Shown piece after piece: positions 7,295 to 32,193 of a DNA stretch of 64,000 nt. Made by a program: the position numbers and the translations under genes. The notes beneath the pieces are model-generated. The model saw only the letters and a list, made by a program, of their open reading frames with translations. It made no database searches and was not told where the DNA came from. The first letter of the stretch is position 1; the number at the start of each line of letters is the position of its first letter. Source of the stretch: Escherichia coli (GTDB taxonomy: Bacteria > Pseudomonadota > Gammaproteobacteria > Enterobacterales > Enterobacteriaceae); assembly GCF_024502345.1 (NCBI RefSeq), contig NZ_JALDNN010000001.1; one strand, written 5' to 3'.

Positions 7295-7370
7295 TGGGTC
7301 AGGATGGCTCATTTGGGCAGGTGTTCACATCAGCATCAGACATGATTGCTCACCTGCCATGTGACAGACG

Positions 7371-7646: not shown

Positions 7647-7788
7647 AGAAAGTTATCCTGAAAATGGTTCACTGAGAAAGTACGATGTTATGGCTGTATT
7701 TACATATAATTAATCAATATTTACATCGATATAATAAATGACATCTCTTTGTGGTACATAAGAATAGTTCTCTGTGACAGGAAGCATA

Positions 7789-7844
7789 TTCCTACAATTG
7801 TAAGACTAAAATACTTCTTGCGATAATAACTACAACTGTAAGAT
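7789..7844 (+). promoter_or_regulatory. Two putative EvgA boxes (TTCCTACAATTGTAAGAC at 7789-7806 and TAACTACAACTGTAAGAT at 7827-7844) upstream of yfdX
   Basis: Inverted-repeat TACA-N-TGTA motifs resembling the EvgA consensus, 100-150 bp upstream of yfdX. Confidence 0.4.
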
Positions 7845-7941
7845 AACCCTTTCAAAATGACCGTTGCTCTCTGATTTCTCATTTCATGCTCACCCAATAT
7901 GATGGCGGCGTTTTCTAAAACTGTTAAAGAATGAGGAAAGT

Positions 7942-8577
7942 ATGAAACGTTTAATTATGGCCACGATGGTCACAGCAATTCTGGCATCTTCAACTGTATG
8001 GGCTGCTGATAATGCTCCGGTAGCGGCACAACAGCAAACTCAGCAAGTTCAGCAAACCCAGAAAACGGCAGCGGCAGCAGAGCGTATCTCTGAACAAGGT
8101 TTATATGCGATGCGTGACGTGCAGGTAGCGCGTCTGGCTCTGTTTCATGGCGATCCGGAAAAGGCAAAAGAACTGACCAATGAAGCTTCAGCTTTGTTGT
8201 CAGATGACAGTACCGAATGGGCAAAGTTCGCTAAGCCAGGTAAAAAGACCAATGTCAATGATGACCAATATATTGTCATTAATGCATCTGTCGGAATTTC
8301 TGAGAGTTATGTAGCGACACCCGAAAAAGAAGCCGCGATAAAAATTGCCAATGAAAAAATGGCGAAAGGGGATAAAAAGGGCGCAATGGAAGAGCTTCGC
8401 CTGGCCGGTGTTGGTGTAATGGAAAACCAATATCTGATGCCGCTTAAACAGACTCGTAATGCACTTGCTGATGCGCAGGAACTGCTTGATAAAAAGCAAT
8501 ACTACGAGGCAAACCTGGCGCTTAAAGGTGCGGAAGATGGAATCATCGTCGATAGCGAAGCACTGTTTGTGAACTAA
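7942..8577 (+). CDS. yfdX: Periplasmic protein YfdX
   Basis: 211 aa ORF with signal peptide; first gene of the yfdX-frc-oxc-yfdVE cluster. Confidence 0.85.
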
Positions 8578-9088
8578 TGCTGACAGGCAGTATATTGAGG
8601 TAAAGGATTTAACTCCCCCCAGCCGACAATTTTTTATGACCACAATACGACAGGTTGTGGTCATAAAATTATTTGGCACTCACGGTTCTATAAACTCGCA
8701 TTTTATATTCCTCAAAGTAAACCGCAATAATCCCGTGTCATCACAAATCATTTAATATGATATATTTTATGGTACGCTTTAAAAAGTGTAATCATACCCT
8801 TACTTGTAAATCACCGGCGCTTCTTACAGTTGTAAGAATAACATCACAAATGTCGCGACTCTCTCTGATTACCACGAACCAATATTTATCATATTCTTCT
8901 TTTCGTCCTCACTACTTACCATGCAGAAAGGAATTGGAAGTAGCGATGAAATGATTTTCAGTACTTGATACAGGAATGTAAAAATATCGAGTGCCGCTAC
9001 GATGATATTTTGCGGGTTATTTATAGAGGCGTTATGCCTTAAATAAACGCTAAATTAACACATATTTAATTAACTAATAGGTATTGCT

Positions 9089-10339
9089 ATGTCAACTCCA
9101 CTTCAAGGAATTAAAGTTCTCGATTTCACCGGTGTGCAATCTGGCCCATCTTGTACTCAAATGCTGGCCTGGTTTGGCGCTGACGTCATTAAAATAGAAC
9201 GTCCCGGCGTTGGTGACGTAACGCGTCACCAGCTGCGAGATATTCCTGATATCGATGCGCTTTACTTCACCATGCTTAACAGTAACAAACGTTCTATTGA
9301 ATTAAATACCAAAACAGCGGAAGGCAAAGAGGTAATGGAAAAGCTGATCCGCGAAGCTGATATCTTAGTCGAGAACTTTCATCCAGGGGCCATTGATCAC
9401 ATGGGCTTCACCTGGGAGCATATTCAAGAAATCAATCCACGTCTGATTTTTGGTTCGATCAAAGGGTTTGATGAGTGTTCGCCTTATGTGAATGTAAAAG
9501 CCTATGAAAACGTTGCTCAGGCAGCGGGTGGCGCGGCATCCACTACGGGTTTTTGGGACGGTCCGCCGCTGGTAAGCGCTGCAGCGTTGGGTGACAGCAA
9601 CACCGGAATGCATTTACTGATCGGTTTACTTGCTGCTTTGCTGCATCGCGAAAAAACGGGGCGTGGGCAACGAGTCACCATGTCAATGCAGGATGCCGTA
9701 TTGAACCTTTGCCGCGTGAAATTACGCGACCAGCAGCGTCTCGATAAATTGGGTTATCTGGAAGAATACCCGCAGTATCCGAATGGCACATTTGGTGATG
9801 CAGTTCCCCGCGGAGGTAATGCGGGTGGTGGCGGTCAGCCTGGCTGGATCCTGAAATGTAAAGGTTGGGAAACCGATCCTAACGCCTATATTTATTTCAC
9901 TATTCAGGAGCAAAACTGGGAAAACACCTGTAAAGCCATCGGCAAACCAGATTGGATTACCGATCCGGCATACAGTACAGCCCATGCCCGACAGCCACAT
10001 ATTTTCGATATTTTTGCTGAAATCGAAAAATACACTGTCACTATTGATAAACATGAAGCGGTGGCCTATTTGACTCAATTTGATATTCCTTGTGCACCGG
10101 TTTTAAGTATGAAAGAAATTTCACTTGATCCCTCTTTGCGCCAAAGTGGCAGTGTTGTCGAAGTGGAACAACCGTTGCGTGGAAAATATCTGACAGTTGG
10201 TTGTCCAATGAAATTCTCTGACTTTACGCCGGATATTAAAGCTGCGCCGCTATTAGGTGAACATACCGCTGCTGTATTGCAGGAGCTGGGTTATAGCGAC
10301 GATGAAATTGCTGCAATGAAGCAAAACCACGCCATCTGA
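9089..10339 (+). CDS. frc: Formyl-CoA:oxalate CoA-transferase (class III CoA-transferase)
   Basis: 416 aa ORF; CaiB/BaiF family signature; adjacent to oxc. Confidence 0.9.
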
Positions 10340-10392
10340 TATTAACGGGGGCTTCTGGCTCCCAATTTATAAAAATTTCGAGGTTATTAATC

Positions 10393-12087
10393 ATGTCAGA
10401 TCAACTTCAAATGACAGATGGTATGCATATCATCGTTGAAGCATTAAAACAGAATAATATTGACACTATTTATGGTGTTGTAGGTATTCCTGTGACGGAT
10501 ATGGCGCGCCATGCCCAGGCGGAAGGCATTCGTTATATTGGTTTTCGTCATGAGCAGTCGGCAGGCTATGCCGCTGCGGCAAGCGGTTTTCTTACCCAAA
10601 AACCGGGGATCTGCCTGACAGTTTCTGCGCCAGGATTCCTCAATGGTTTGACCGCATTGGCCAACGCAACGGTAAATGGTTTTCCGATGATCATGATTAG
10701 CGGCTCCAGCGACCGCGCGATCGTCGACCTACAGCAAGGTGATTATGAAGAGCTGGACCAAATGAATGCGGCAAAACCGTATGCCAAAGCAGCATTTCGC
10801 GTTAATCAGCCGCAGGATCTTGGCATTGCATTGGCGCGCGCTATCCGGGTCTCCGTATCGGGTCGCCCTGGCGGAGTTTATCTTGATTTGCCAGCAAATG
10901 TCCTGGCCGCGACGATGGAAAAAGACGAAGCGTTAACCACGATTGTAAAAGTTGAAAATCCGTCGCCAGCATTATTGCCATGCCCGAAGTCAGTCGCTAG
11001 CGCAATTTCGCTTTTAGCAAAAGCTGAACGACCATTAGTTATCCTTGGCAAAGGCGCGGCGTATTCACAAGCTGATGAACAGCTTCGTGAATTTATTGAA
11101 AGTGCCCAGATTCCATTCCTGCCAATGTCTATGGCGAAAGGGATCCTCGAAGATACGCATCCACTTTCTGCGGCAGCTGCGCGTTCGTTTGCCCTGGCAA
11201 ATGCTGACGTTGTCATGCTTGTTGGTGCACGACTGAATTGGTTACTGGCACACGGTAAAAAAGGATGGGCGGCAGATACACAGTTTATTCAACTGGATAT
11301 TGAACCGCAGGAAATTGACAGCAACCGCCCTATTGCTGTGCCAGTCGTTGGCGATATTGCATCCAGTATGCAAGGTATGCTGGCAGAGCTGAAACAAAAC
11401 ACATTTACGACTCCACTGGTATGGCGCGATATTTTAAATATCCACAAGCAGCAAAATGCACAAAAAATGCATGAAAAATTAAGTACAGATACCCAACCAT
11501 TAAATTACTTTAATGCATTAAGTGCTGTGCGCGATGTATTGCGTGAGAACCAGGATATTTATTTAGTTAATGAAGGTGCAAATACCCTGGATAATGCACG
11601 AAATATTATTGATATGTATAAACCACGTCGTCGTCTGGATTGTGGTACCTGGGGTGTCATGGGCATCGGTATGGGCTATGCCATCGGTGCTAGCGTGATC
11701 TCTGGTTCTCCGGTTGTCGCCATTGAAGGTGATAGTGCTTTTGGTTTCAGTGGGATGGAGATTGAAACGATTTGTCGATATAACCTGCCGGTGACGATCG
11801 TTATTTTTAATAATGGCGGCATCTACAGAGGAGACGGTGTTGATCTCAGTGGCGCTGGTGCACCATCACCAACAGATCTGTTGCACCATGCAAGGTATGA
11901 CAAATTAATGGATGCGTTTCGTGGCGTTGGCTATAACGTCACCACGACAGATGAACTTCGTCATGCTTTAACCACCGGTATTCAGTCGCGCAAACCGACC
12001 ATTATTAATGTGGTCATCGACCCTGCAGCAGGAACTGAAAGTGGCCATATTACCAAACTTAACCCAAAACAAGTCGCTGGTAATTAA
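10393..12087 (+). CDS. oxc: Oxalyl-CoA decarboxylase (ThDP-dependent)
   Basis: 564 aa ORF; ThDP-binding motif GDSAFGFSGMEIET…NNGG. Confidence 0.9.
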   Translation: MSDQLQMTDGMHIIVEALKQNNIDTIYGVVGIPVTDMARHAQAEGIRYIGFRHEQSAGYAAAASGFLTQKPGICLTVSAPGFLNGLTALANATVNGFPMIMISGSSDRAIVDLQQGDYEELDQMNAAKPYAKAAFRVNQPQDLGIALARAIRVSVSGRPGGVYLDLPANVLAATMEKDEALTTIVKVENPSPALLPCPKSVASAISLLAKAERPLVILGKGAAYSQADEQLREFIESAQIPFLPMSMAKGILEDTHPLSAAAARSFALANADVVMLVGARLNWLLAHGKKGWAADTQFIQLDIEPQEIDSNRPIAVPVVGDIASSMQGMLAELKQNTFTTPLVWRDILNIHKQQNAQKMHEKLSTDTQPLNYFNALSAVRDVLRENQDIYLVNEGANTLDNARNIIDMYKPRRRLDCGTWGVMGIGMGYAIGASVISGSPVVAIEGDSAFGFSGMEIETICRYNLPVTIVIFNNGGIYRGDGVDLSGAGAPSPTDLLHHARYDKLMDAFRGVGYNVTTTDELRHALTTGIQSRKPTIINVVIDPAAGTESGHITKLNPKQVAGN

Positions 12088-12156
12088 ATACTGACATCGT
12101 CTCCTCTTGCCAACTCATTATGCGATGGTGAGGGGACCCTTATCGGAAATACTATT

Positions 12157-13101
12157 ATGCTAACATTTTTTATTGGCGATTTATTGCCTATTATCGTAAT
12201 CATGCTGTTGGGTTATTTTAGCGGCAGACGAGAAACTTTTTCAGAAGATCAAGCCCGGGCATTTAATAAACTGGTATTAAACTACGCGCTTCCTGCAGCC
12301 CTATTTGTTTCTATTACCCGGGCAAACAGGGAAATGATTTTTGCGGACACTCGTCTGACCCTTGTATCACTCGTGGTTATTGTCGGATGTTTCTTTTTCT
12401 CCTGGTTTGGTTGCTACAAATTTTTTAAACGTACCCATGCAGAAGCAGCTGTATGTGCATTAATTGCAGGTTCACCTACCATTGGATTCCTGGGGTTTGC
12501 AGTTCTCGATCCTATTTATGGTGATTCCGTATCAACAGGTTTAGTGGTAGCAATTATTTCTATTATTGTTAACGCAATTACTATTCCTATTGGTCTGTAT
12601 TTGCTGAATCCTTCCTCAGGAGCGGATGGTAAGAAAAATAGTAATCTGAGCGCATTAATTTCTGCGGCAAAGGAGCCAGTTGTATGGGCACCTGTTCTGG
12701 CAACGATCCTGGTGTTGGTTGGGGTAAAAATTCCGGCAGCATGGGACCCAACCTTTAATCTGATTGCGAAGGCTAACTCAGGGGTAGCGGTATTCGCTGC
12801 GGGGTTGACTCTGGCTGCACATAAATTCGAGTTCAGTGCCGAAATTGCTTATAACACCTTCCTGAAGCTGATTCTGATGCCACTGGCGCTGCTTCTCGTT
12901 GGTATGGCATGTCATTTGAACAGCGAACATTTGCAGATGATGGTACTGGCAGGCGCATTACCGCCGGCATTCTCCGGAATCATTATTGCCAGCCGGTTTA
13001 ATGTCTACACCCGCACTGGTACAGCGTCATTGGCTGTGAGCGTACTGGGTTTTGTCGTCACGGCTCCCTTGTGGATTTATGTCAGTCGACTGGTTTCATA
13101 A
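12157..13101 (+). CDS. yfdV: AEC-family transporter YfdV
   Basis: 314 aa polytopic membrane protein; synteny. Confidence 0.85.
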
Positions 13102-13174
13102 TTAATCATGTTATTGATTTTACATAAACGCCGAAGTGTCTTTTCACCTTCGGCTTTTTTCAAGGCATAAGCAA

Positions 13175-14320
13175 ATGACAAATAATGAAAGCAAAGGGCC
13201 GTTTGAAGGCTTATTAGTTATCGATATGACACATGTCCTTAATGGACCTTTCGGAACTCAACTTCTTTGTAATATGGGCGCAAGGGTAATTAAAGTTGAG
13301 CCGCCGGGCCATGGTGATGATACCCGCACATTTGGTCCCTATGTGGATGGACAGTCACTCTATTACAGTTTTATTAATCATGGCAAAGAGAGTGTGGTTC
13401 TTGATTTAAAGAATGATCACGATAAAAGTATATTTATAAATATGCTTAAACAAGCTGATGTATTAGCTGAGAATTTTCGCCCAGGTACAATGGAAAAACT
13501 AGGGTTTTCATGGGAAAGGTTACAAGAAATCAACCCGCGCCTCATATATGCTTCATCGTCAGGTTTCGGACATACCGGTCCGCTAAAAGATGCTCCTGCC
13601 TACGATACCATCATTCAGGCAATGAGCGGGATAATGATGGAAACAGGGTACCCTGATGCTCCGCCAGTGCGTGTTGGTACCTCTCTTGCGGATCTATGCG
13701 GCGGTGTCTATTTATTCAGCGGAATAGTGAGTGCACTTTATGGCCGCGAAAAGAGCCAGAGAGGGGCGCATGTCGATATAGCGATGTTTGATGCCACGCT
13801 GAGTTTTCTGGAGCATGGTCTGATGGCATATATTGCGACAGGGAAGTCACCACAACGCCTGGGAAATCGCCATCCCTACATGGCACCTTTTGATGTTTTC
13901 GATACTCAGGATAAGCCGATTACGATTTGTTGTGGTAATGACAAGCTTTTTTCTGCGTTATGCCAGGCACTGGAGCTTACGGAACTGGTTAATGATCCCA
14001 GATTTAGCAGCAATATTTTACGCGTACAAAACCAGGCTATTCTTAAACAATATATTGAGCGGACGTTAAAAACGCAGGCAGCTGAAGTTTGGTTAGCCAG
14101 AATACATGAAGTTGGTGTACCCGTCGCGCCGTTATTAAGTGTGGCTGAGGCCATTAATTTGCCACAAACTCAGGCGAGAAATATGTTGATTGAAGCCGGG
14201 GGAATAATGATGCCGGGTAATCCGATAAAAATCAGTGGCTGCGCGGACCCGCATGTTATGCCGGGAGCGGCAACGCTCGACCAGCATGGGGAGCAAATTC
14301 GCCAGGAGTTCTCATCATAA
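13175..14320 (+). CDS. yfdE: Acetyl-CoA:oxalate CoA-transferase YfdE (class III CoA-transferase)
   Basis: ORF 13136-14320; start placed at the internal Met (MTNNESKG…) for a 381 aa protein; paralogous to Frc. Confidence 0.85.
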   Translation: MTNNESKGPFEGLLVIDMTHVLNGPFGTQLLCNMGARVIKVEPPGHGDDTRTFGPYVDGQSLYYSFINHGKESVVLDLKNDHDKSIFINMLKQADVLAENFRPGTMEKLGFSWERLQEINPRLIYASSSGFGHTGPLKDAPAYDTIIQAMSGIMMETGYPDAPPVRVGTSLADLCGGVYLFSGIVSALYGREKSQRGAHVDIAMFDATLSFLEHGLMAYIATGKSPQRLGNRHPYMAPFDVFDTQDKPITICCGNDKLFSALCQALELTELVNDPRFSSNILRVQNQAILKQYIERTLKTQAAEVWLARIHEVGVPVAPLLSVAEAINLPQTQARNMLIEAGGIMMPGNPIKISGCADPHVMPGAATLDQHGEQIRQEFSS

Positions 14321-14342
14321 ATGTAAGATGTGCTGGTAAATA

Positions 14343-14369
14343 GCTCCCACATTTGAACATTGTGGGAGC
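14343..14369. terminator. Hairpin between convergent yfdE and evgS
   Basis: Inverted repeat gctcccacat…attgtgggagc between two convergent stops. Confidence 0.5.
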
Positions 14370-14375
14370 CGCTAT

Positions 14376-17300
14376 TTAGTCATTTTGCTGACAGAAAACA
14401 GCAATCTCCTGGTCCAGCTCTGCAATGTGTTCTTTTACAGAGTTCAGCAGCTGAAGAATTTCAGGCTTACTGTCATCTGAAACAGGTGTTATTTCTAACT
14501 GATGGCTAATATTAATCAACTTTTGCAAATTCAGGATGTTAGCCGCACCGTGGATGCGATGAATACACTGATGGAAAGTTCTATTATCGCCAGCTTCTAG
14601 TGCATGAAACGCAGCGGGTAAATCTTTATGTGTTTCATGCTGGAAAGTCATGAGAATCTCCTGCATCAGTTGTAGATCGTTCGCCGTATTATTTTTCAGG
14701 GCTTCGATATCAAGGTGGCGATACTGAGGTGCAATATGCGCAACCTGGTGTAACTGACTTAAATGTGTTTTCAGTACATCCAGGGTCAACGGTTTGAACA
14801 AACATAAGTTCATGCCGCAATTTAACCCTTTTTCACGTTCGTTAGCCTGTGCGTTGGCTGTAAGCCCCCAGATGGGTAAGGAAGAATTTTGCTCACGGAG
14901 TTTGCGAGTCAACTCAAAACCATCCATATTCGGCATATTAACGTCAGTAATAAGCAGATCATAATGTTGCATACTGACTTTGTGTAGCGCTTGCACACCA
15001 TCAGTGGCTTCGTCAACATCATATCCTAATAGATTTAGCTGGCGTTTGAGTAATAGCCTGTTGGTCGGATGATCATCCGCGATTAATATGCTCAACTTTT
15101 CAGGTAGTGTGATAGGTTGTTCTGCTTTTGCCTCGACAGCCGCCACTTGTTGGGTAATTTCTACCGGGATTGTGATCGTAAATGTTGTTCCTATGCCTGG
15201 ATGACTTTCTAATGACAAATCACCCTGCATGTTTTTAATTAATTCTTTGCAGATCATTAAGCCTAAACCAGAACCTGTTTGCTGACGACCTGCACTTGTT
15301 TGGCTATAACGTTTAAACAGTTGTTGTTGTTCTTCCTGTGATAATCCACTTCCAGAATCCATAATCGTTATTTTGATTACAGCGTGGTTGTCATCAATGT
15401 GACCCAGGGAGGTCGTAATTTTTACTGCCCCCTCGGTGGTAAATTTGAGAGCATTACTCAGTAAATTTGATAAGACCTGCTTAAACGCCTGAGGGTCGAT
15501 CTTAACCAGGTAATGTTCAGGAAACGTACTGCTGCAACTTAATGCGATCGATTTGCTTGCAGCAATCGCACCGAAAGAGTGACAAGTGTTCTGGACTAAA
15601 GTAGGAATATCGACCCATTGTGGTTGAAGTTGATAGTTACCCGATTCAATTTTGTCGACATCAAGGATTTCACCAATTAAGCCGAGGAGTGATTGTCCGG
15701 TGGCGTAGGCAAGTGAAATCGCCTCCACCCGTTGTTCCTTGCTAAGACCAGAACCCGACAGAAGTTCCAGGAAGCCCATAATGGAGCTTATTGGTGTTCT
15801 TATTTCGTGACTCATTGTTGCCAGAAACTGACTTTTTGCGACAGTTGCATTGATCGCTTTATTTCTCTCTACTTCGAGTGCATGAATTAAATCACGCGTC
15901 TCGGTAATATCTTGCCAACCACAAATATAAACAGCATGTTCGCTGGCTGGCAGATTACATAATGTATGCCAGTGATTAATGCATCTTTTCTCGATGCCAT
16001 TATCAATTTCAAATACCTGTGTGTATATTGTTCGGTTTTCTTTCGTCTCTGCTGTGACTTCATGCGTATTAGAAAAAACATCTTTAAAGGGTGATTCACT
16101 GTTTTCTAATGGCAACATTGCATTTTTGTAGTAATCAGCAGTGAAATAATGTTCAAATGCACTATTGTGACTAATGACATTACCTTGCCAGTTTACAACA
16201 TAAGTTGGATTCGGTAAGGAGTCCGAGAGCGCTTTCCGGAATGATATTTGGTTTTCTAAATCACCCTGAATGACTTTACGACGACGAACTGAGCGTAACA
16301 GGTAGAATCCCCATAAAAGGCTACTGCCAACTAATAAAACGGATAATGTCGTAACAATATAAAATTGCTCGCTATAGAGGTCCCATGTGTCAATGGTCAC
16401 ATTGGGCATTTTAATCCATTTTTCGGTCAGGCGCAGAACTTCGCTTGGGGGGATTGCATTCAGTGCTTTATTAATAATATCCTTAAGTTCCGGTTCTCCG
16501 CGAGGAAAAGCGAACGAAAGCGATGCATTCGGAACGCCGGGAATAAGAAAATGATAAAGTTCATTAGGATAGTAATGGTCGATCATGTAACGCGAATTTA
16601 ACTGTGTCGCGACCAGAGCATCAAGTTCACCTTCCTTGACCTTGTGAAATGCAGCGCTGGCGTTATCGACTTTTATCCACTCTACCTCCGGATACATCTC
16701 TTTTAATTGCGAATGAAGCTCATAATAATATGGAATGGCAACTTTCATTCCTTTTTTTAATGTTTGTTCACTGTCAGGCGCTTTTTGCATGACAAAAACG
16801 TAAGGCGTTGTTATGAAGGCTTCAGCAAATAAAACATTATTTTCTCTATCTTCACTATAAATAGCACCGGGTAATATATCCCATCCGCCGGGATTCAGCT
16901 GTGTTCCAGCATGGATATTGTGTGAAACGGTGATCGGAGAAAAATTTAAACCTGTTTGCAAGGTAATAATATTAAGAATATCCCCCATAACGCCCCGAAC
17001 CGAGCCATTTTCATCCGTCATAGAATAGGGAGGAGAGTAAGGATTTTCCAGCACCTTTAAATCGGGATGCTGCTTAATCCACTGTTTTTCATGTTCAGTG
17101 AGTTCTAATGGTTTGTTCAGAAAGGCCAGGTTTCCTGTATCAAGCCAATTTTGTGATACTTCATAGCGAACTTCATTTGTTAAAGCATCAACAAATCGAT
17201 TGAGTACTTCATTAAGAACGACAGATTCTTTTCTGGTCAAGAAAAAATTATATTGACGCGGTGAGTTATAATATTTCACTACATTTAAGGAGTGAGTGAA

Positions 17301-17849
17301 ATAGCGGGAAATCATACTGCTGGTAATGATGTTACTACCAATAAAGTAATCATTCTGTCCGGCTGAGACGGATGCTAATGCCTGATATAAATTTGTAAAA
17401 GAGATAATTGTTGCTTTTGGAAATGATTGATGAATTACCTCGTCAGGGGGATAATTTGCTACTCGAGCAATATTTACTGGTTTTGATGAGGTAAGCGGTC
17501 GCATTGAATCGTGAAGGGTGGTGACCAGCGCCGGAAAGGTAATTATCAGTGGTTTGGTTGCAGCAATGTCATCATTAAGAGGCGGCGAAGCAACTAAATG
17601 TGATAACACTATATCGACTTCACCTTCTTCCAGCGCGTCCATTGCTTTTTGATGATCGGCGTATTCCCGGAGTGTTAATTTGATATTTAACGCTCTTTTT
17701 AAAAGATTTAAATAGTCAGCATTAATACCACGAACCCGTTGCTGCGAATCGGTATGCAACAACGTAGCCGTTTGGGACTTATGTACTGCAATCACAAGAT
17801 TTTTTTTGCTCGCTAACCAACGTAATTCCTTGTTGCTCAGACGTAGTGG
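14376..17849 (-). pseudogene. evgS: evgS hybrid sensor kinase, 5'-truncated (about 40 N-terminal codons and promoter lost) at the IS903-like element
   Basis: Reading frame translates …PLRLSNKELRWLASKKNLVIAVHKSQ… right up to the IS inverted repeat at 17850; no start codon or native upstream sequence remains. Confidence 0.85.
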
Positions 17850-18906
17850 GGCTTTGTTGAATAAATCAGATTTCGGGTAAGTCTCCCCCGTAGCGGGTTG
17901 TGTTTTCAGGCAATACGCACGCTTTCAGGCATACCTGCTTTCGTCATTTTGTTCAGCGCTCGTACCAGGGCCATAGCCTCTGCAACCTGACCATCGTAGT
18001 CACGCAGTGTCAGTGAACCCCCGAACAGCTGTTTTACCCGGTACATCGCCGTTTCCGCTATCGAGCGACGGTTGTAATCTGTTGTCCATTTCCACCGCGC
18101 ATTACTCCCGGTCATTCGCTGATTAGCCACTGCACGGTTACGGTCTGCATATTCACCGGGCCAGTAACCCGCACCTTTTCGGGGAGGGATAAGCGCGCTG
18201 ATTTTCTTACGCCGCAGTTCATCGTGACATAGCCGGGTATCGTAAGCGCCATCGGCGGCGGCTGACCTGATTTTCCGGTGGGTTTGCCGGATTAACCCGG
18301 GGAAGGCCTCTGAGTCCGTAACGTTGTTCAGCGACAGGTCAGCGCAGATGATTTCATGTGTTTTACTGTCAACGGCGAGATGCAGCTTACGCCAGATACG
18401 GCGGCGTTCCTGGCCATGCTTTTTGACTTTCCACTCGCCTTCACCGAAGACCTTCAGCCCGGTGGAATCAATTACCAGGTGTGCGATTTCACCCCGGGTG
18501 GGCGTTTTGAAACTGACATTAACCGACTTTGCCCGCCTGCTGACACAGCTGTAATCCGGGCAGCGTAGCGGAACGTTCATCAGAGAAAAAATGGAATCAA
18601 TAAAGCCCTGCGCAGCGCGCAGGGTCAGCCTGAATACGCGTTTAATGACCAGCACAGTCGTGATGGCAAGGTCAGAATAGCGCTGAGGTCTGCCTCGTGA
18701 AGAAGGTGTTGCTGACTCATACCAGGCCTGAATAGCTTCATCATCCAGCCAGAAAGTTATGGAGCCACGGTTGATGAGGGCTTTATTGTAGGTGGGCCAG
18801 TTGGTGATTTTGAACTTTTGCTTTGCCACGGAACGGTCTGCGTTGTCGGGAAGATACGTGATCTGATCCTTCAACTCAGCAAAAGTTCGATTTATTCAAC
18901 AAAGCC
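17850..18906 (-). mobile_element. IS903-like insertion sequence (IS5 family), 1057 bp
   Basis: 18 bp terminal inverted repeats GGCTTTGTTGAATAAATC (17850-17867) and its reverse complement (18889-18906) flank a single transposase ORF; the 9 bp flanks differ (acgtagtgg vs cggtcaaaa). Confidence 0.8.
17906..18874 (-). CDS. IS903-group (IS5 family) DDE transposase
   Basis: 322 aa ORF, C-terminal two-thirds recalled as near-identical to IS903 transposase (…NRRSIAETAMYRVKQLFGG…); true start may be slightly internal. Confidence 0.85.
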   Translation of the reverse strand: MKDQITYLPDNADRSVAKQKFKITNWPTYNKALINRGSITFWLDDEAIQAWYESATPSSRGRPQRYSDLAITTVLVIKRVFRLTLRAAQGFIDSIFSLMNVPLRCPDYSCVSRRAKSVNVSFKTPTRGEIAHLVIDSTGLKVFGEGEWKVKKHGQERRRIWRKLHLAVDSKTHEIICADLSLNNVTDSEAFPGLIRQTHRKIRSAAADGAYDTRLCHDELRRKKISALIPPRKGAGYWPGEYADRNRAVANQRMTGSNARWKWTTDYNRRSIAETAMYRVKQLFGGSLTLRDYDGQVAEAMALVRALNKMTKAGMPESVRIA

Positions 18907-19841
18907 CGGTCAAAATGAATCTACCAGGACTGACCCTGTTAGTGCTCGGTGTTGGTGGCTTGCAAATTATGCTTGATAAAGGGCGCGATCTGGATTGGTT
19001 CAACTCGAATACAATAATAATATTAACAGTAGTATCAGTTATTTCTCTGATCTCTTTAGTCATTTGGGAGTCGACCTCAGAGAATCCGATTCTTGATCTC
19101 AGTTTGTTTAAGTCCCGTAATTTCACCATTGGTATTGTGAGTATCACCTGCGCGTATTTATTTTACTCTGGAGCGATCGTCCTTATGCCGCAGTTACTCC
19201 AGGAAACGATGGGGTATAATGCGATATGGGCCGGGCTTGCTTATGCGCCCATCGGCATCATGCCACTATTGATTTCACCTTTGATAGGACGTTATGGCAA
19301 TAAAATAGACATGCGGGTGTTAGTGACATTCAGTTTTTTGATGTATGCGGTTTGCTATTACTGGCGTTCTGTGACATTTATGCCAACGATTGATTTTACA
19401 GGCATCATTTTGCCACAGTTTTTCCAGGGATTCGCCGTTGCCTGTTTCTTTTTACCCTTAACAACGATTTCGTTTTCAGGCTTGCCAGATAATAAATTTG
19501 CCAATGCCTCGAGTATGAGTAATTTTTTTCGTACCTTGTCAGGATCAGTTGGTACGTCGTTGACAATGACGCTGTGGGGACGACGCGAATCGTTACACCA
19601 TAGTCAGTTGACAGCAACCATCGATCAATTTAACCCCGTGTTTAATTCATCGTCACAAATTATGGATAAATACTATGGTTCGCTTTCAGGAGTTCTTAAT
19701 GAAATTAATAATGAAATAACCCAGCAGTCACTTTCTATTTCTGCAAATGAGATTTTCCGTATGGCGGCTATTGCTTTTATCTTACTTACGGTTTTGGTTT
19801 GGTTTGCGAAACCGCCGTTTACAGCGAAAGGCGTTGGGTGA
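18907..19841 (+). pseudogene. emrY: emrY MFS multidrug efflux pump, 3' fragment (about 310 C-terminal codons) abutting the IS903-like element
   Basis: Translation matches the C-terminal transmembrane half of an EmrB/EmrY-type transporter; sequence begins directly at the IS inverted repeat. Confidence 0.8.
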
Positions 19842-19948
19842 TGATAAAAGGAGGGGGTTATAGCGGGTAAGACCGGGGATCTTAAGTCTGCGCCATCGGC
19901 AGCATCGCTCACCCAGGGAAAGGATTGCGATGCTGCGTTGAAACGTTA

Positions 19949-21277
19949 TTAACGGCCTTTTGCCAGATATTGATTCATCTCTTCTTCCGGCACCATTCCA
20001 CCTCCCGTCGCCCACACCAGATGAGTGGCATTACGCAATTGTTCTGCGCTGAAACCGTGCATCTGTTGGTAACTTACTGATGCACACACGCGCTGAGGTC
20101 CGGCCATACCCGCCAGTGCTGAAGGTTCAAGACGAATACCTTCTTCCTGCGCCAGCCAGCCAAGCATGTCATACATGGTTTGATCGCTAAGGGTATAGAA
20201 GCCATCCAGCAGACGCTCCATTGCCCGCCCGACAAAGCCTGATGCGCGACCAACTGCAAGGCCATCCGCTGCGGTAAGGTTGTCGATACCAATATCCTGA
20301 ACAGAAATCTGATCGTGTAATCCTGTATGGACGCCTAACAACATACAAGGGGAGTGCGTTGGTTCGGCAAAAAAGCAGTGAACATGATCGCCAAACGCCA
20401 GTTTAAGCCCGAATGCGACGCCACCAGGACCACCGCCAACACCACACGGCAGATAGACAAACAGAGGGTTATCAGCATCGACGATACGGCCTTGCTGGGC
20501 AAATTGCGCTTTAAGACGCTGGCCAGCGACGGAATACCCAAGGAACAACGTGCGGGAATTTTCGTCATCAATAAAGAAACAGTTCGGGTCAGACTGCGCT
20601 GCTTTACGTCCTTCCTCGACGGCAACACCATAATCTTGCTCATATTCCACGACCGTAACGCCATGGCTGCGCAGTTTCGCTTTTTTCCATGCCCGGGCAT
20701 CAGCAGACATATGAACTGTCACCTTAAAGCCAATGCGGGCGCTCATAATGCCGATTGATAACCCCAGATTTCCGGTTGAGCCCACAGCAATGCTGTATTG
20801 GCTAAAGAACTGTTTAAACTCCGGAGAAAGCAGTTTGCTGTAGTCATCATCAAGCGTCAGCAACCCCGCTTCCAGAGCCAGTTTTTCTGCGTGTGCCAGG
20901 ACTTCATAAATCCCGCCGCGTGCTTTTATGGAGCCGGAAATGGGCAAATGGCTATCTTTTTTCAGTAACAGTTGCCCGCTGATCGGTTGCTGATATTCTT
21001 TTTCCAGCCGTTTTTGCATAGCTGGAATGGCAACCAGTTCTGATTCAATAATCCCCCCAGTGGCAGCAGTTTCAGGAAATGCTTTTGCCAGATAGGGTGC
21101 AAAACGGGATAAGCGCGCATGGGCGTCCTGAACATCCTGTTCGGTCAGGCCAACATAAGGTAAACCTTCAGCCAATGAGGTCGTGCCAGGATTAAACCAG
21201 GTGGTTTCTTTAAGAGCAACCAGATCCTTTACCAACGGATACTGGGCGATGAGCGAGTTCATTTTAGCGTTTTCCAT
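19949..21277 (-). CDS. dsdA: D-serine dehydratase (PLP-dependent)
   Basis: 442 aa ORF recognised as DsdA; convergent with emrY as in K-12. Confidence 0.9.
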
Positions 21278-21294
21278 AGTACGTCTCTTTGCGC

Positions 21295-21525
21295 TTAGAT
21301 GATAAATGACAGCAGGAATGTGCCCGCCAGAGCGACGACTGAAGCGATAAATGTCGCTGTCGTATAGTATTTAAATGTTTCATTGAGCGTAGCGCCGCAA
21401 TATTGCTTCACTAGCCAGAAAAGCGAGTCCGTAACGATCGTGCAGCCAATTGCACCTGAACCGATAGCAATCGCAATAATTTCCGGGCTGATGTCGGGAT
21501 ACAGCGGCAGCACAATGATCCATAT
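21295..21525 (-). pseudogene. dsdX: dsdX D-serine permease, 3' remnant (about 72-76 codons)
   Basis: Translation is the hydrophobic C-terminus of a GntP-family permease; an in-frame stop lies 4 codons upstream of the first possible start, and csc sequence begins there. Confidence 0.75.
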
Positions 21526-21743
21526 TTATATTTTCTTCTCCAGGTTGGCGATGCCAGTTGGCATGTTTTACTTACTTGCCTATATGGTTACTCGTTGGCG
21601 AGAACAGAGGCGGAATTGGGGACAATTGTCCGGGAATTATTGTTATTTTTTATTGTATTGCTGTGTCAGGTGATAGGGCGTTGGATCTCGCCAGTGACGT
21701 CTGTTTCTGCTACAGTGCCCGTTTTACGGCAAACGGCTTGGGT

Positions 21744-22739
21744 ATGGCTTCATTAAAGGATGTCGCACGCCTGGCGGGAGTGTCGATGATGACAGTCTCC
21801 CGGGTGATGCATAATGCAGAATCTGTGCGTCCTGCAACGCGTGACCGCGTATTGCAGGCAATCCAGACCCTGAATTATGTTCCTGATCTTTCCGCCCGTA
21901 AGATGCGCGCTCAAGGACGTAAGCCGTCGACTCTCGCCGTGCTGGCGCAGGACACGGCTACCACTCCTTTCTCTGTTGATATTCTGCTTGCCATTGAGCA
22001 AACCGCCAGCGAGTTCGGCTGGAATAGTTTTTTAATCAATATTTTTTCTGAAGATGACGCTGCCCGCGCGGCACGTCAGCTGCTTGCCCACCGTCCGGAT
22101 GGCATTATCTATACTACAATGGGGCTGCGACATATCACGCTGCCTGAGTCCCTGTATGGTGAAAATATTGTATTGGCGAACTGTGTGGCGGATGACCCAG
22201 CGTTACCCAGTTATATCCCTGATGATTACACTGCACAATATGAATCAACACAGCATTTGCTCGCGGCGGGCTATCGTCAACCGTTATGCTTCTGGCTACC
22301 GGAAAGTGCGTTGGCAACAGGGTATCGTCGGCAGGGATTTGAGCAGGCCTGGCGTGATGCTGGACGAGATCTGGCTGAGGTGAAACAATTTCACATGGCA
22401 ACAGGTGATGATCACTACACCGATCTCGCAAGTTTACTCAATGCCCACTTCAAATCGGGCAAACCAGATTTTGATGTTCTGATATGTGGTAACGATCGCG
22501 CAGCCTTTGTCGCTTATCAGGTTCTCCTGGCGAAGGGGGTACGTATCCCGCAGGATGTCGCCGTAATGGGCTTTGATAATCTGGTTGGCGTCGGGCATCT
22601 GTTTTTACCGCCGCTGACCACAATTCAGCTTCCACATGACATTATCGGGCGGGAAGCTGCATTGCATATTATTGAAGGTCGTGAAGGGGGAAGAGTGACG
22701 CGGATCCCTTGCCCGCTGTTGATCCGTTGTTCCACCTGA
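21744..22739 (+). CDS. cscR: Sucrose operon repressor CscR (LacI family)
   Basis: LacI-type HTH (MASLKDVARLAGVSMMTVSRV) plus periplasmic-binding-like domain; start placed at the internal ATG at 21744 (331 aa) within the longer ORF. Confidence 0.85.
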   Translation: MASLKDVARLAGVSMMTVSRVMHNAESVRPATRDRVLQAIQTLNYVPDLSARKMRAQGRKPSTLAVLAQDTATTPFSVDILLAIEQTASEFGWNSFLINIFSEDDAARAARQLLAHRPDGIIYTTMGLRHITLPESLYGENIVLANCVADDPALPSYIPDDYTAQYESTQHLLAAGYRQPLCFWLPESALATGYRRQGFEQAWRDAGRDLAEVKQFHMATGDDHYTDLASLLNAHFKSGKPDFDVLICGNDRAAFVAYQVLLAKGVRIPQDVAVMGFDNLVGVGHLFLPPLTTIQLPHDIIGREAALHIIEGREGGRVTRIPCPLLIRCST

Positions 22740-22746
22740 TATTATG

Positions 22747-24180
22747 TTAACCCAGTAGCCAGAGTGCTCCATGTTGCAGCACAGCCACTCCGTGGGAGGC
22801 ATAAAGCGACAGTTCCCGTTCTTCTGGCTGCGGATAGATTCGACTACTCATCACCGCTTCCCCGTCGTTAATAAATACTTCCACGGATGATGTATCGATA
22901 AATATCCTTAGGGCGAGCGTGTCACGCTGCGGGAGGGGAATACTACGGTAGCCGTCTAAATTCTCGTGTGGGTAATACCGCCACAAAACAAGTCGCTCAG
23001 ATTGGTTATCAATATACAGCCGCATTCCAGTGCCGAGCTGTAATCCGTAATGTTCGGCATCACTGTTCTTCAGCGCCCACTGCAACTGAATCTCAACTGC
23101 TTGCGCGTTTTCCTGCAAAACATATTTATTGCTGATTGTGCGGGGAGAGACAGATTGATGCTGCTGGCGTAACGACTCAGCTTCGTGAACCGGGCGTTGT
23201 AGAAGTTTGCCATTGCTCTCTGATAGCTCGCGCGCCAGCGTCATGCAGCCTGCCCATCCTTCACGTTTTGAGGGCATTGGCGATTCCCACATATCCATCC
23301 AGCCGATAACAATACGCCGACCATCCTTCGCTAAAAAGCTTTGTGGTGCATAAAAGTCATGCCCGTTATCAAGTTCAGTAAAATGCCCGGATTGTGCAAA
23401 AAGTCGTCCTGGCGACCACATTCCGGGTATTACGCCACTTTGAAAGCGATTTCGGTAACTGTATCCCTCGGCATTCATTCCCTGCGGGGAAAACATCAGA
23501 TAATGCTGATCGCCAAGGCTGAAAAAGTCCGGACATTCCCACATATAGCTTTCACCCGCATCAGCGTGGGCCAGTACGCGATCGAAAGTCCATTCACGTA
23601 ATGAACTGCCGCGATAAAGCAGGATCTGCCCCGTGTTGTCTGGGTCTTTCGCCCCGACTACCATCCACCATGAGTCGGCTTCACGCCACACTTTAGGATC
23701 GCGGAAGTGCATGATTCCTTCTGGTGGAGTGAGGATCACACCCTGTTTCTCGAAATGAATACCATCCCGACTGGTAGCCAGACATTGTACTTCGCGAATT
23801 GCATCGTCATTACCTGCACCATCGAGCCAGACGTGTCCGGTGTAGATAAGTGAGAGGACACCATTGTCATCGACAGCACTACCTGAAAAACACCCGTCTT
23901 TGTCATTCTCGTCTCCTGGCGCTAGCGCAATAGGCTCATGCTGCCAGTGGATCATATCGTCGCTGGTGGCATGTCCCCAGTGCATTGGCCCCCAGTGTTC
24001 GCTCATCGGGTGATGTTGATAAAACGCGTGATAACGATCGTTAAACCAGATCAGGCCGTTTGGATCGTTCATCCACCCGGCAGGAGGCGCGAGGTGAAAA
24101 TGGGGATAGAAAGTGTTACCCCGGTGCTCATGAAGTTTTGCTAGTGCGTTTTGCGCCGCATGCAATCGAGATTGCGTCAT
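22747..24180 (-). CDS. cscA: Sucrose-6-phosphate hydrolase / invertase CscA (GH32)
   Basis: GH32 motifs (WMNDPNG, RDP, EC); start placed at MTQSRLH… (477 aa). Confidence 0.85.
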   Translation of the reverse strand: MTQSRLHAAQNALAKLHEHRGNTFYPHFHLAPPAGWMNDPNGLIWFNDRYHAFYQHHPMSEHWGPMHWGHATSDDMIHWQHEPIALAPGDENDKDGCFSGSAVDDNGVLSLIYTGHVWLDGAGNDDAIREVQCLATSRDGIHFEKQGVILTPPEGIMHFRDPKVWREADSWWMVVGAKDPDNTGQILLYRGSSLREWTFDRVLAHADAGESYMWECPDFFSLGDQHYLMFSPQGMNAEGYSYRNRFQSGVIPGMWSPGRLFAQSGHFTELDNGHDFYAPQSFLAKDGRRIVIGWMDMWESPMPSKREGWAGCMTLARELSESNGKLLQRPVHEAESLRQQHQSVSPRTISNKYVLQENAQAVEIQLQWALKNSDAEHYGLQLGTGMRLYIDNQSERLVLWRYYPHENLDGYRSIPLPQRDTLALRIFIDTSSVEVFINDGEAVMSSRIYPQPEERELSLYASHGVAVLQHGALWLLG

Positions 24181-24213
24181 TTTAATCATCCTGGTTAAGC
24201 AAATTTGGTGAAT

Positions 24214-24226
24214 TGTTAACGTTAAC
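24214..24226. promoter_or_regulatory. Putative CscR operator 1 (TGTTAACGTTAAC) in the cscA-cscK divergent region
   Basis: 13 bp palindromic motif, identical copy 64 bp away; resembles LacI-family operator cores. Confidence 0.45.
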
Positions 24227-24277
24227 TTTTATAAAAATATAGTCCCTTACTTTCATAAATGCGATGAATATCACAAA

Positions 24278-24290
24278 TGTTAACGTTAAC
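24278..24290. promoter_or_regulatory. Putative CscR operator 2 (TGTTAACGTTAAC)
   Basis: Second identical copy of the 13 bp motif in the same intergenic region. Confidence 0.45.
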
Positions 24291-24395
24291 TATGCCGTTT
24301 TGTGATCGAATATGCATGTTTTAGTAAATCCATGACGATTTTGCGAGAAAGAGGTTTATCACTATGCGTAACTCAGATGAATTTAAGGGAAAAAA

Positions 24396-25310
24396 ATGTC
24401 AGCCAAAGTATGGGTTTTAGGGGATGCGGTCGTAGATCTCTTGCCAGAATCAGACGGGCGCCTACTGCCTTGTCCTGGCGGCGCGCCAGCTAACGTTGCG
24501 GTGGGAATCGCCAGATTAGGCGGAATAAGTGGATTTATAGGTCGGGTCGGTGATGATCCTTTTGGGGCGTTAATGCAAAGAACGCTGCTAACTGAGGGAG
24601 TCGATATCACGTATCTGAAGCAAGATGAATGGCACCGGACATCCACGGTGCTTGTCGATCTGAACGATCAAGGGGAACGTTCATTTACGTTTATGGTCCG
24701 CCCCAGTGCCGATCTTTTTTTAGAGACGACAGACTTGCCCTGCTGGCGACATGGCGAATGGTTACATCTCTGTTCAATTGCGTTGTCTGCCGAGCCTTCG
24801 CGTACCAGCGCATTTACTGCGATGACGGCGATCCGGCATGCCGGAGGTTTTGTCAGCTTCGATCCTAATATTCGTGAAGATCTATGGCAAGACGAGCATT
24901 TGCTCCGCTTGTGTTTGCGGCAGGCGCTACAACTGGCGGATGTCGTCAAGCTCTCGGAAGAAGAATGGCGACTTATCAGTGGAAAAACACAGAACGATCG
25001 GGATATATGCGCCCTGGCAAAAGAGTATGAGATCGCCATGCTGTTGGTGACTAAAGGTGCAGAAGGTGTGGTGGTCTGTTATCGAGGACAAGTTCACCAT
25101 TTTGCTGGAATGTCTGTGAATTGTGTCGATAGCACGGGGGCGGGAGATGCGTTCGTTGCCGGGTTACTCACAGGTCTGTCCTCTACGGGATTATCTACAG
25201 ATGAGAGAGAAATGCGACGAATTATCGATCTCGCTCAACGTTGCGGAGCGCTTGCAGTAACGGCGAAAGGGGCAATGACAGCGCTGCCATGTCGACAAGA
25301 ACTGGAATAG
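24396..25310 (+). CDS. cscK: Fructokinase CscK (PfkB family)
   Basis: 304 aa ORF; ribokinase/PfkB motifs (GGAPANVA…, DSTGAGDAFVAG). Confidence 0.85.
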   Translation: MSAKVWVLGDAVVDLLPESDGRLLPCPGGAPANVAVGIARLGGISGFIGRVGDDPFGALMQRTLLTEGVDITYLKQDEWHRTSTVLVDLNDQGERSFTFMVRPSADLFLETTDLPCWRHGEWLHLCSIALSAEPSRTSAFTAMTAIRHAGGFVSFDPNIREDLWQDEHLLRLCLRQALQLADVVKLSEEEWRLISGKTQNDRDICALAKEYEIAMLLVTKGAEGVVVCYRGQVHHFAGMSVNCVDSTGAGDAFVAGLLTGLSSTGLSTDEREMRRIIDLAQRCGALAVTAKGAMTALPCRQELE

Positions 25311-25381
25311 TGAGAAGTAAACGGCGAAGTCGCTCTTATCTCTAAATAGGACGTGAATTTTTTAACGACAGGCAGGTAATT

Positions 25382-27069: not shown

Positions 27070-27084
27070 TGGTGTCCCCTGCAG
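27070..27084. repeat. 15 nt direct repeat of the argW 3' end (TGGTGTCCCCTGCAG); candidate prophage attR core
   Basis: Exact match to the first 15 nt of the reverse-complemented argW 3' end at 38480-38494. Confidence 0.5.
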
Positions 27085-27157
27085 ACATCTACTTGAAGCG
27101 GCAGGGGATTGATTGGAATGGTATTTTTTAGATGTGAGAAATATTTTACCCGCTATT

Positions 27158-27358: not shown

Positions 27359-27377
27359 GAGTGCTATCTCCGAATAG

Positions 27378-31047: not shown

Positions 31048-32193
31048 ATGGGCGTCGTTAAGTTAGCTGATTACAGGCCTCAACTGGAGGTCGTGGAGCA
31101 TCGCGTGGCAGATACCGAAGATGGTTTCATGCGCGTTGCTAACGAGATTACTCAATATCCAGACCAGATTGAATCCGTTCGTAAAGGCATGGGATTCATT
31201 GATGAAGACCAGCGTAATTCTATCGGCACCTTAGCGGCTGGCGCACGCCTTGCGTCATCGTCTCCAGAAGCAATGCAATCATGGCTGCAAAACAACGCCG
31301 GTGAGTTAGCTCGTGTTGGCGTTAATCCTCATGACGTCGCTCAGATGTACCAACAGAACCCGCGGCAGTTCGTCGAATTTGTCGATCACCTGGGGATGAA
31401 CAGTCTCGGGCCCGAAAAATACTTTGACCTACAGGATAAAATGCAGGGTCGCCAGGTTACCATGCGCGGTCAGGATCTGGATTCGCAAACCGCCGCTCGG
31501 AATCAGGCAATCACAATGCGCGGACAAGATATCCAGGCGAATTTAGGTCAGCAGCGCATTAATCTGGACGCAGAAACAAACCGCATTAACAACGAAAATA
31601 AGCGCCTTGACCGGATGCTATCAGCAGAAACTAACGACCTGAAGCGCCAGGAAATACAGAGCCGCATAGCAGCCAACAACCAGCAGTTGCAGCAGAAGCA
31701 GCAAGCGCTAAATGATGGCTACAAAGACGGCATCAACACCCTCACAACCAGCATGTTCACTCTGAACGATATCGTTAGTTCTCCTTCACTTAAGAGCATT
31801 ACAGGCTTACGTGGAGTAATCCCCAACGTTCCAGGCTCACAGGCTGCAGACACTCAGGCACGACTTGATACCTTTAAATCACAAGCATACCTGACAGCGG
31901 TTCAGGCCATGCGAGGCATGGGCGCACTTTCTGATGCCGAGGGCAAAAAGCTCGACCAGGCTGTTGGTTCGCTGCAGAACTCGCAGAGCGAGGAGTCCTT
32001 TCGTCGCAACGCTGGCGTCATCCTGAACACGCTCAACCAGAAGCGTAATGAGGCGGTTGGTAAGTACGTTCAGCAAAACGGTATCAAGCGAGTGGAAGCG
32101 CCTCAGGCTTCTATAGATTACCTGAAGCAGCACCCCGAGCTGTCAATCGACTTCATTAATCGCTACGGATATCTTCCATCTTTGGGGCAGTAA
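31048..32193 (+). CDS. Hypothetical phage protein, Gln-rich with predicted coiled coil
   Basis: 381 aa ORF immediately upstream of, and abutting, the transglycosylase gene; no family recognised. Confidence 0.5.
   Translation: MGVVKLADYRPQLEVVEHRVADTEDGFMRVANEITQYPDQIESVRKGMGFIDEDQRNSIGTLAAGARLASSSPEAMQSWLQNNAGELARVGVNPHDVAQMYQQNPRQFVEFVDHLGMNSLGPEKYFDLQDKMQGRQVTMRGQDLDSQTAARNQAITMRGQDIQANLGQQRINLDAETNRINNENKRLDRMLSAETNDLKRQEIQSRIAANNQQLQQKQQALNDGYKDGINTLTTSMFTLNDIVSSPSLKSITGLRGVIPNVPGSQAADTQARLDTFKSQAYLTAVQAMRGMGALSDAEGKKLDQAVGSLQNSQSEESFRRNAGVILNTLNQKRNEAVGKYVQQNGIKRVEAPQASIDYLKQHPELSIDFINRYGYLPSLGQ

Follow-up and report, generated by a model that had tools for sequence, protein, structure and literature searches.

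A probable IS903B-associated deletion across the evgAS-emrKY locus of an Escherichia coli strain

In the DNA analysed here, 64 kb of an Escherichia coli contig (hereafter the window, meaning the whole stretch), an insertion sequence stands between evgS and emrY, both incomplete, and the genes evgA and emrK are absent. The locus thus raises the questions whether a deletion associated with the element has really taken place, by which route it arose and what it means for the strain. We explored these questions by comparison with K-12 MG1655, with the nearest relative that we found, strain C 236-04A, and with 5,426 complete E. coli genomes.

The element, its flanks and the missing segment

The features are collected in Table 1. 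By its length, inverted repeats, identity and transposase gene the element is IS903B (IS5 family, IS903 group). The initial annotation had described it as IS903-like with 18 bp inverted repeats; it is a complete copy with perfect repeats, and a repeat search of the window returned the same arms, each with one additional base that is complementary by chance. It is identical over 1057/1057 positions to the copy in strain L26, which is annotated 'IS5-like element IS903B family transposase', and over 1053/1057 to the copy in strain MB51, likewise annotated IS903B and thus 4 nt apart. The transposase ORF was assigned to the NCBIfam IS5-family transposase NF033579 with 357 bits (cut-off 140) and a match over the whole profile, positions 1-289 of 289. 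Both termini are whole and adjoin chromosomal DNA to the exact base. A second insertion sequence in the window is an IS2-like element.

Table 1. Features at the evgS-emrY junction (window coordinates)
Feature	Position	Strand	Remarks
evgS remnant, codons 41-1197 and stop	14376..17849	-	Frame (...NKA/PLRLSNKELRWLASKKNLVIAVHK...) read from 17849 to stop at 14376
Left flanking 9-mer, ACGTAGTGG	17841-17849		Read directly
IS903B, complete, 1,057 bp	17850..18906	-	Sole copy within the window
Terminal inverted repeat, 18 bp, GGCTTTGTTGAATAAATC	17850-17867		Perfect
IS903B transposase ORF, uninterrupted	17906..18874	-	Reads toward the evgS remnant
Terminal inverted repeat, 18 bp, GATTTATTCAACAAAGCC	18889-18906		Perfect
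Right flanking 9-mer, CGGTCAAAA, then TGAAT	18907-18915		Read directly
emrY remnant, second base of codon 202 to stop	18907..19841	+	blastn break at K-12 2481572; tblastn with EmrY

By blastn, window positions 9000-17849 correspond to K-12 MG1655 2493344..2484494 and positions 18906/7-21512 to 2481573/2..2478967. The segment missing with respect to K-12 is 2481573..2484493, or 2,921 bp, and alignment to C 236-04A likewise gave a gap of 2,921 bp. The flanks are collinear with both genomes and the breakpoints fall exactly at the IS termini, IS903B being joined directly to evgS codon 41 on one side and to emrY codon 202 on the other. The lost DNA comprises evgS codons 1-40, evgA, evgL, the divergent evgA/emrK promoter and control region, emrK and the first 604 nt of emrY. 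This bears out the initial annotation, which had proposed a deletion of about 2.9 kb including evgA and emrK, with the evgS and emrY frames ending at the element. The loss of the evgS 5' end also stands, while the loss of an emrY '5' half' has to be corrected: 604 nt make up 201 of 512 codons plus 1 nt, about 39% and not quite half.

The evgS remnant matches K-12 EvgS residues 41-1197 at 98.0% and has no internal stops (tblastn). Its promoter, start codon and first 40 residues are gone, and with these residues a hydrophobic N-terminal segment which we take to be the signal peptide. There is no in-frame start codon between the IS-internal stop and the GTG at 17795. The longest ORF of the emrY remnant has 308 aa and starts at Met205 (18915); neither a promoter nor emrK is found upstream of the remnant.

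The O125ac:H10 strain C 236-04A differs from the window by 8 mismatches in 24.4 kb of flanks (99.97% identical) and has an intact locus. It carries the full intervening segment, showing that in this lineage the native locus does not place evgS next to emrY, and the deleted segment is held by 5,380 of the 5,426 complete genomes. A tblastn search with the K-12 proteins identified no copy of evgA or emrK anywhere in the 64-kb window. With respect to C 236-04A the evgS remnant shows one mismatch and the emrY remnant none; given so few substitutions, the lack of stops in both remnants and the intact locus of this closest genome, the deletion, judged from these alignments, looks recent. Junction-specific megablast of the 5,426 complete genomes gave no match for the right junction, and for the left junction it matched only a simple insertion in MB51 that is offset by 1 bp. 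The exact 34- and 36-nt junction sequences were absent from metagenome contigs, and exact-protein look-ups of truncated EmrY (308 aa) and EvgS (1,139 and 1,088 aa) returned no record. We consider it very probable that the deletion is real, that it is associated with IS903B and that it knocks out evgAS and emrKY.

IS903B target sites at the locus

The two 9-mers that flank the element, ACGTAGTGG and CGGTCAAAA, differ, as had been noted initially in arguing that this is no simple insertion, and a 9-bp target duplication is absent. In other genomes, 14 further IS903B copies were found in the oxc-emrY interval, and every one has a perfect 9-bp duplication; junctions at 12 of these control loci were read from DNA alignments. 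The absent duplication is therefore a mark of rearrangement and not evidence against the identity of the element. In the alignment to C 236-04A the native breakpoints share no bases, and a microhomology-mediated deletion was therefore rejected.

Over about 7.3 kb from evgS to emrY, 13 complete genomes carry IS903B in the same orientation at a total of 11 distinct sites, whereas a rough estimate from chromosomal copy numbers predicts about 3. The sites pair up at distances of 1, 26 and 33 bp. One lies 119 bp from the right junction of the window and another 1 bp from the left junction; the latter is the independent insertion of MB51, 1 bp past the junction, with target duplication CGTAGTGGA. 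Simple insertions in evgS, evgA, emrK and emrY are found in MB51, L26, 23CRST027, TUM1881, EC0900, DETEC-S560, W444, 729_141114_1_15, CUVET20-1667, isolate 23 and ET151. Element and locus are as in the window, but these copies have perfect 9-bp duplications and the flanking DNA is fully kept.

Both junctions were scored against the published IS903 target motif WTTYA-N9-TRAAW (PMC2577343, Table 1). The emrY site scores 7/10, compared with a maximum of 6 and a mean of 4.1 for the 14 control insertions, and the TGAAT that follows the right 9-mer is a 5/5 match to the TRAAW half. The evgS site scores 3/10, no better than chance. Given the emrY score and the MB51 insertion 1 bp from the left junction, both junctions look transposase-chosen. 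Real insertions average 4.1/10 versus a random expectation of 3.5/10; since the motif barely separates the two, it does not settle which junction was formed first.

Routes to the deletion

The route to which we lean, at about even chances, is an insertion followed by an IS903 intramolecular transposition, known as adjacent deletion. IS903B would first have inserted by ordinary transposition, either at evgS codon 40/41 or at emrY codon 202. The same copy would then have attacked a second site on the same chromosome through the intramolecular, replicative (cointegrate) pathway. In this classical IS903 'adjacent deletion' the DNA from the IS end to the new target would leave as a non-replicating circle, and the end product would be one intact IS with its original 9-bp target at one end and, at the other, 9 bp from the newly attacked site. 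We infer the order of events and the intramolecular route from the final arrangement: the precise gap, the complete termini, the intact transposase ORF, the missing duplication and the lack of microhomology all favour adjacent deletion. IS903 adjacent deletions are common, require both IS ends and use the cointegrate pathway, and IS copies without duplications usually originate from adjacent deletion or from recombination between IS copies (PMC11708052).

That second origin, to which we assign a lower though substantial probability, requires that evgS (duplication ACGTAGTGG) and emrY (duplication CGGTCAAAA) each received an IS903B copy, both equally oriented, and that RecA-dependent recombination between the copies removed one IS and the 2.9 kb. 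The product would be as observed, a single intact IS bordered on its left by the flank of one copy and on its right by that of the other. For copies in direct orientation the final sequence is identical to that left by adjacent deletion, so that the window gives no means of telling the two routes apart. Duplications are frequently missing because IS copies have recombined (PMC11708052), and the 11 same-orientation sites in other genomes show that IS903B repeatedly enters the locus. However, one and the same lineage would first have to acquire two independent insertions within 3 kb of each other, and only then the deletion, while none of the 17 genomes with IS903B in the region shows a double insertion and C 236-04A has no IS903B at the locus. 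A mosaic pattern was not found in the window element, a test without power because the element is identical to a common, widespread allele.

Capture of a new IS903B at a chromosomal break in the course of the deletion, in one step, with no staggered cut and no prior insertion, appears very unlikely. Such a combination of IS and deletion without duplication has been proposed for an element of the IS5 family (IS903 subgroup) in E. coli C (PMC11708052). A precursor with a single IS903B and a duplication of either flanking 9-mer was found neither in the 5,426 complete genomes nor in metagenome contigs, which speaks for capture and against adjacent deletion; C 236-04A is the only close relative found. 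The authors of the proposal, however, could not rule out an insertion with a subsequent adjacent deletion, and a precursor insertion was present in 14/14 such cases of the long-term evolution data (PMC11708052). The window junctions moreover coincide to the base with the IS termini and fall at what look like transposase-selected sites, one 1 bp from the MB51 insertion and the other the best motif match.

We give slightly less credit still to an assembly artefact, in which two IS903B copies with evgA-emrK in between were collapsed as a repeat and the 2.9-kb piece was dropped. A repeat of 1,057 bp exceeds short reads and such collapses occur, and the window junctions are seen nowhere else in the complete genomes and metagenome contigs. 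Nevertheless, an artefact presupposes a double insertion, just as unlikely here as for recombination between two copies, and assemblers normally break at IS copies and do not silently skip unique sequence. The 64 kb are contiguous across both IS903B and the IS2-like element, suggesting a long-read or finished assembly. Finally, a deletion that came first, or native adjacency of evgS and emrY in this lineage, with IS903B inserted later at the junction, has nothing in its favour beyond the bare adjacency of the two genes and was rejected as having virtually no chance, since a later simple insertion would have given a 9-bp duplication, which is absent, and the nearest relative and nearly all complete genomes retain the segment.

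Comparisons and consequences

Insertion followed by adjacent deletion has close parallels. The classical IS903/Tn903 adjacent deletions (PMC11708052) resemble the window in that an intact IS is kept, the deletion starts from an IS terminus, no duplication is present and the new junction is target-like. Unlike these genetic studies, the window presents a natural chromosomal case, at evgS and emrY, whose mechanism we infer from sequence. The long-term evolution experiment with E. coli similarly yielded deletions at IS150 and IS1 that combine an IS with non-matching flanks and the loss of adjacent genes; they were attributed either to an insertion and a later adjacent deletion or to recombination between IS copies (PMC11708052). 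Those cases concern other elements and come with a time series, whereas the window has IS903B and no time series.

E. coli Z503 (NZ_CP090305.1) has undergone an independent, IS1-associated loss of frc-oxc-yfdV-yfdE-evgS-evgA-emrK-emrY'. As in the window, evgAS and emrK are lost, an IS marks the junction and emrY remains in truncated form; the Z503 element is IS1, in contrast, and the deletion is larger and includes the oxalate genes. In emrY, Z503 is broken 74 bp upstream of the window breakpoint and so keeps 74 more bases of the gene. Together with the repeated simple insertions, the independent IS-mediated deletions in the window and in Z503 could suggest that evgAS-emrKY is a recurrent IS903B target, possibly favoured by selection, an idea that we regard as unlikely. 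If loss of EvgAS were adaptive in some animal or gut niches, the window would represent one allele of a parallel evolution and not a neutral accident.

Otherwise the deletion is one more natural, strain-specific example of a well-understood, IS-driven kind of event which raises no new question. The affected system is otherwise present in >99% of complete E. coli genomes. In annotating this strain, the two truncated genes evgS and emrY should be marked as pseudogene remnants. Natural E. coli isolates in which EvgS/EvgA does not respond to mild acid have been described (Roggiani, Yadavalli and Goulian 2017, PMC5706723); in these isolates an intact EvgS carries amino-acid polymorphism, whereas in the window strain the regulator gene is physically absent. 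Because of this gene content EvgS/EvgA signalling and EmrKY would both be lost: the cell would be without the EvgA response regulator, without an exportable or translatable EvgS and without the EmrKY pump, and EvgA-dependent induction should be gone. The strain is accordingly predicted, from its gene content, to lack acid-inducible (EvgA-dependent) glutamate-dependent acid resistance during growth, as well as the expression that EvgA drives at emrKY and at the neighbouring oxalate genes. These predicted losses would bear on stomach passage and on the interpretation of the phenotypes of the strain.

IS903B and the missing segment

The element separating the two gene remnants, evgS' and emrY', is assigned to IS903B and judged complete, since it is bounded by perfect 18-bp terminal inverted repeats (GGCTTTGTTGAATAAATC and its complement), has an intact ORF that matches the full length of the NCBIfam IS5-family transposase model NF033579 (357 bits, cut-off 140 bits) and is identical (1057/1057) to the copy in L26, annotated as 'IS5-like element IS903B family transposase'. 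It differs from the MB51 copy at four positions, is the only IS903B copy in the 64-kb window and is presumably active. The initial annotation thus correctly recognized an IS903-like element, and its repeats indeed lie exactly where the evgS and emrY frames end (17849 and 18907). By tblastn with K-12 EvgS as query, evgS' corresponds to residues 41-1197 (98% identity), and the longest ORF in emrY' starts at Met205.

Features of the window around the deletion and in neighbouring regions
Feature	Position	Strand	Description
evgS'	17849 down to 14376	minus	frame ...PLRLSNKELRWLASKKNLVIAVHK..., stop-free until 14376
IS903B	17850..18906		1,057 bp, complete, bounded by perfect 18-bp inverted repeats
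IS903B transposase ORF	17906..18874	minus	single, uninterrupted
emrY'	18907..19841	plus	EmrY codon 202 to end
Sucrose genes	21295-26629		in place of K-12 dsdX 5' part and dsdC
P22-like prophage	~27400-38554		degraded, ~11 kb
Chimeric prophage ORF	31048..32193		~35 residues of a replication-O-like protein fused to DNA-ejection protein
IS2-group (IS3-family) element	~33730-35050		within prophage tailspike gene
IS2-group orfB	33762..34643
IS2-group orfA	34601..34996
argW	38480..38554		tRNA-Arg(CCT)

Comparison with K-12 MG1655 by blastn placed window 9000-17849 at 2493344..2484494 and 18906/7-21512 at 2481573/2..2478967, leaving K-12 2481573..2484493, 2,921 bp, without a counterpart, in agreement with the roughly 2.9 kb proposed earlier; measured against the O125ac:H10 strain C 236-04A (NZ_CP109924.1) the size is the same. 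According to the K-12 annotation this segment holds evgS codons 1-40, evgA, evgL (9 codons), the divergent evgA/emrK intergenic region, the entire emrK and 604 nt from the start of emrY, or 201 of its 512 codons plus 1 nt. The predicted loss of the evgS 5' end, evgA and emrK therefore stands, but emrY has lost 39% rather than half, and evgS only 40 codons. The 40 missing EvgS residues, MKFLPYIFLLCCGLWSTISFADEDYIEYRGISSNNRVTLD, include its hydrophobic N-terminal segment, which we take to be the signal peptide. No tblastn match to EvgA, EmrK or EvgL was found across the 64-kb window, so neither evgA nor emrK lies elsewhere within it.

Origin of the deletion

As a control for target duplication, both junctions were read of 14 IS903B copies that other genomes carry in the oxc-emrY interval, inserted in evgS (MB51, L26, 23CRST027, TUM1881), evgA (EC0900, DETEC-S560), emrK (W444, 729_141114_1_15, CUVET20-1667, isolate 23), emrY (ET151), oxc (M15), yfdV (CP53) and yfdE (CUPF09). 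All 14 have perfect 9-bp duplications; only the window copy lacks one, its abutting 9-mers being ACGTAGTGG (left) and CGGTCAAAA (right), unequal as first noticed. The two native breakpoints share no microhomology.

Absent duplications are usually explained by adjacent deletion or by recombination between IS copies, and adjacent deletions are common for IS903, where they need both IS ends and follow the cointegrate pathway (PMC11708052). In an adjacent deletion a single IS903B copy would insert and then transpose intramolecularly to a nearby site, upon which the interval between would be lost as a circle; the product would be an IS with the old flank on one side and a new 9-bp target on the other. 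Homologous recombination between two IS903B copies inserted in the same orientation would leave exactly the same product, but requires two insertions, while the locus is free of them in the nearest relative, C 236-04A. Since it needs only one insertion, we favour adjacent deletion, the mechanism originally put forward, as the likelier of two routes indistinguishable by sequence rather than as the sole one.

A third model, in which a random break captures the IS in a single step (PMC11708052), is mildly argued against by the fact that both junctions look transposase-selected: the left lies 1 bp from an independent insertion, and the right (emrY) site matches the IS903 target motif WTTYA-N9-TRAAW (PMC2577343) at 7 of 10 positions, above each of the 14 controls. 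The motif discriminates weakly (control mean 4.1 versus 3.5 expected by chance) and hence cannot order the two junctions. There is a small possibility that two IS copies were collapsed in the assembly. Deletion followed by IS903B insertion is excluded, as a later insertion would leave a 9-bp duplication.

Lineage, recurrence and neighbouring regions

C 236-04A is the closest-matching complete genome, with six differences over 1-17849 and two over 18907-25507, and its complete, IS-free evgS-evgA-emrK-emrY locus rules out that evgS and emrY are natively adjacent in this lineage. The deletion appears recent and limited to one strain or a narrow clone, because compared with C 236-04A evgS' carries one substitution and emrY' none, and both lack stops. 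Among 5,426 complete E. coli genomes, a junction-specific search found the right junction in none and matched the left only in MB51, where a simple IS903B insertion, oriented alike and with perfect duplication CGTAGTGGA, lies 1 bp further along. Metagenome contigs scanned for the exact junctions gave no match.

The 2,921-bp segment is present (at least 80% coverage) in 5,380 of these genomes, partial in 25 and absent from 21, consistent with a published description of EvgS/EvgA as present in virtually all sequenced E. coli (PMC5706723). One deficient genome, Z503 (NZ_CP090305.1 2373994-2376915), has a larger deletion, from just after yfdX into emrY, with loss of frc, oxc, yfdV, yfdE, evgS, evgA, emrK and the emrY 5' part. 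It has IS1 at the junction where the window has IS903B, and is an independent loss; IS-linked loss of the evgAS-emrKY locus thus recurs, albeit rarely. The residual emrY of Z503 is additionally split by ISKpn26.

Same-orientation IS903B was seen in 13 genomes at 11 distinct sites within ~7.3 kb of the evgS-emrY region, an approximately four-fold excess over the ~3 copies expected from chromosomal copy numbers, both being rough estimates that ignore phylogeny. Some sites are close: 1 bp apart in the window and MB51, 26 bp at the evgA 3' end in EC0900 and DETEC-S560 (which share EvgS and DsdA protein accessions; their IS903B duplications differ) and 33 bp in emrK in CUVET20-1667 and isolate 23. 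A reading that we consider unlikely is that IS903B clusters here beyond chance, perhaps because certain niches select against EvgAS.

K-12 homology stops at window 21512. The sucrose-utilisation genes comprise cscA and genes for a fructokinase-like kinase and a regulator of the LacI type, along with cscB, whose 415-aa permease product is intact; C 236-04A shares this island, except that ISKpn26 interrupts its cscB. Sucrose use has probably been gained and D-serine use lost, the latter because only a dsdX 3' remnant and dsdA are left. The prophage at argW encodes a cI-like repressor, a truncated transglycosylase, a tailspike and the integrase IntS, whereas C 236-04A has a different, larger lambdoid prophage at this position; window 25400-40400 is at most 57% covered by any complete E. 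coli genome. The IS2-group element is flanked by a 17-nt direct repeat, ATCCTGAAAACCAGATT (about 33704-33720 and 35051-35067), far longer than the usual 5-bp IS2 duplication, and no terminal inverted repeat of at least 14 nt was detected on it. In C 236-04A a gene annotated ptsP, beside ypdE and ypdC, is flagged frameshifted (238-2732 of the compared locus); its window counterpart would fall at about 1-350.

Predicted functional consequences

Judging by gene content and established knowledge, the EvgS/EvgA phosphorelay would be lost, since evgA is absent and evgS has been left without its promoter, its start codon and the export signal at its N-terminus. Despite transcription of the transposase gene toward evgS', an IS-EvgS fusion protein is not expected, because there is no in-frame start codon between the IS-internal stop (17927) and a GTG at 17795. 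On the same grounds the EmrKY pump would be lost, as no emrK is left and the promoter and first 201 codons of emrY are missing. EvgA targets include ydeP, safA-ydeO and via them gadE, as well as yfdX-frc-oxc-yfdV-yfdE, neighbours of the locus; these should lose acid-inducible activation. The window has full-length ORFs for frc, oxc, yfdV and yfdE, and the yfdX-yfdE stretch is near-identical to that of C 236-04A. RpoS-dependent stationary-phase acid resistance would be expected to be unaffected. The deletion is a fresh case of a well-known type of event, which helps to annotate and phenotype this strain and is of limited wider interest.
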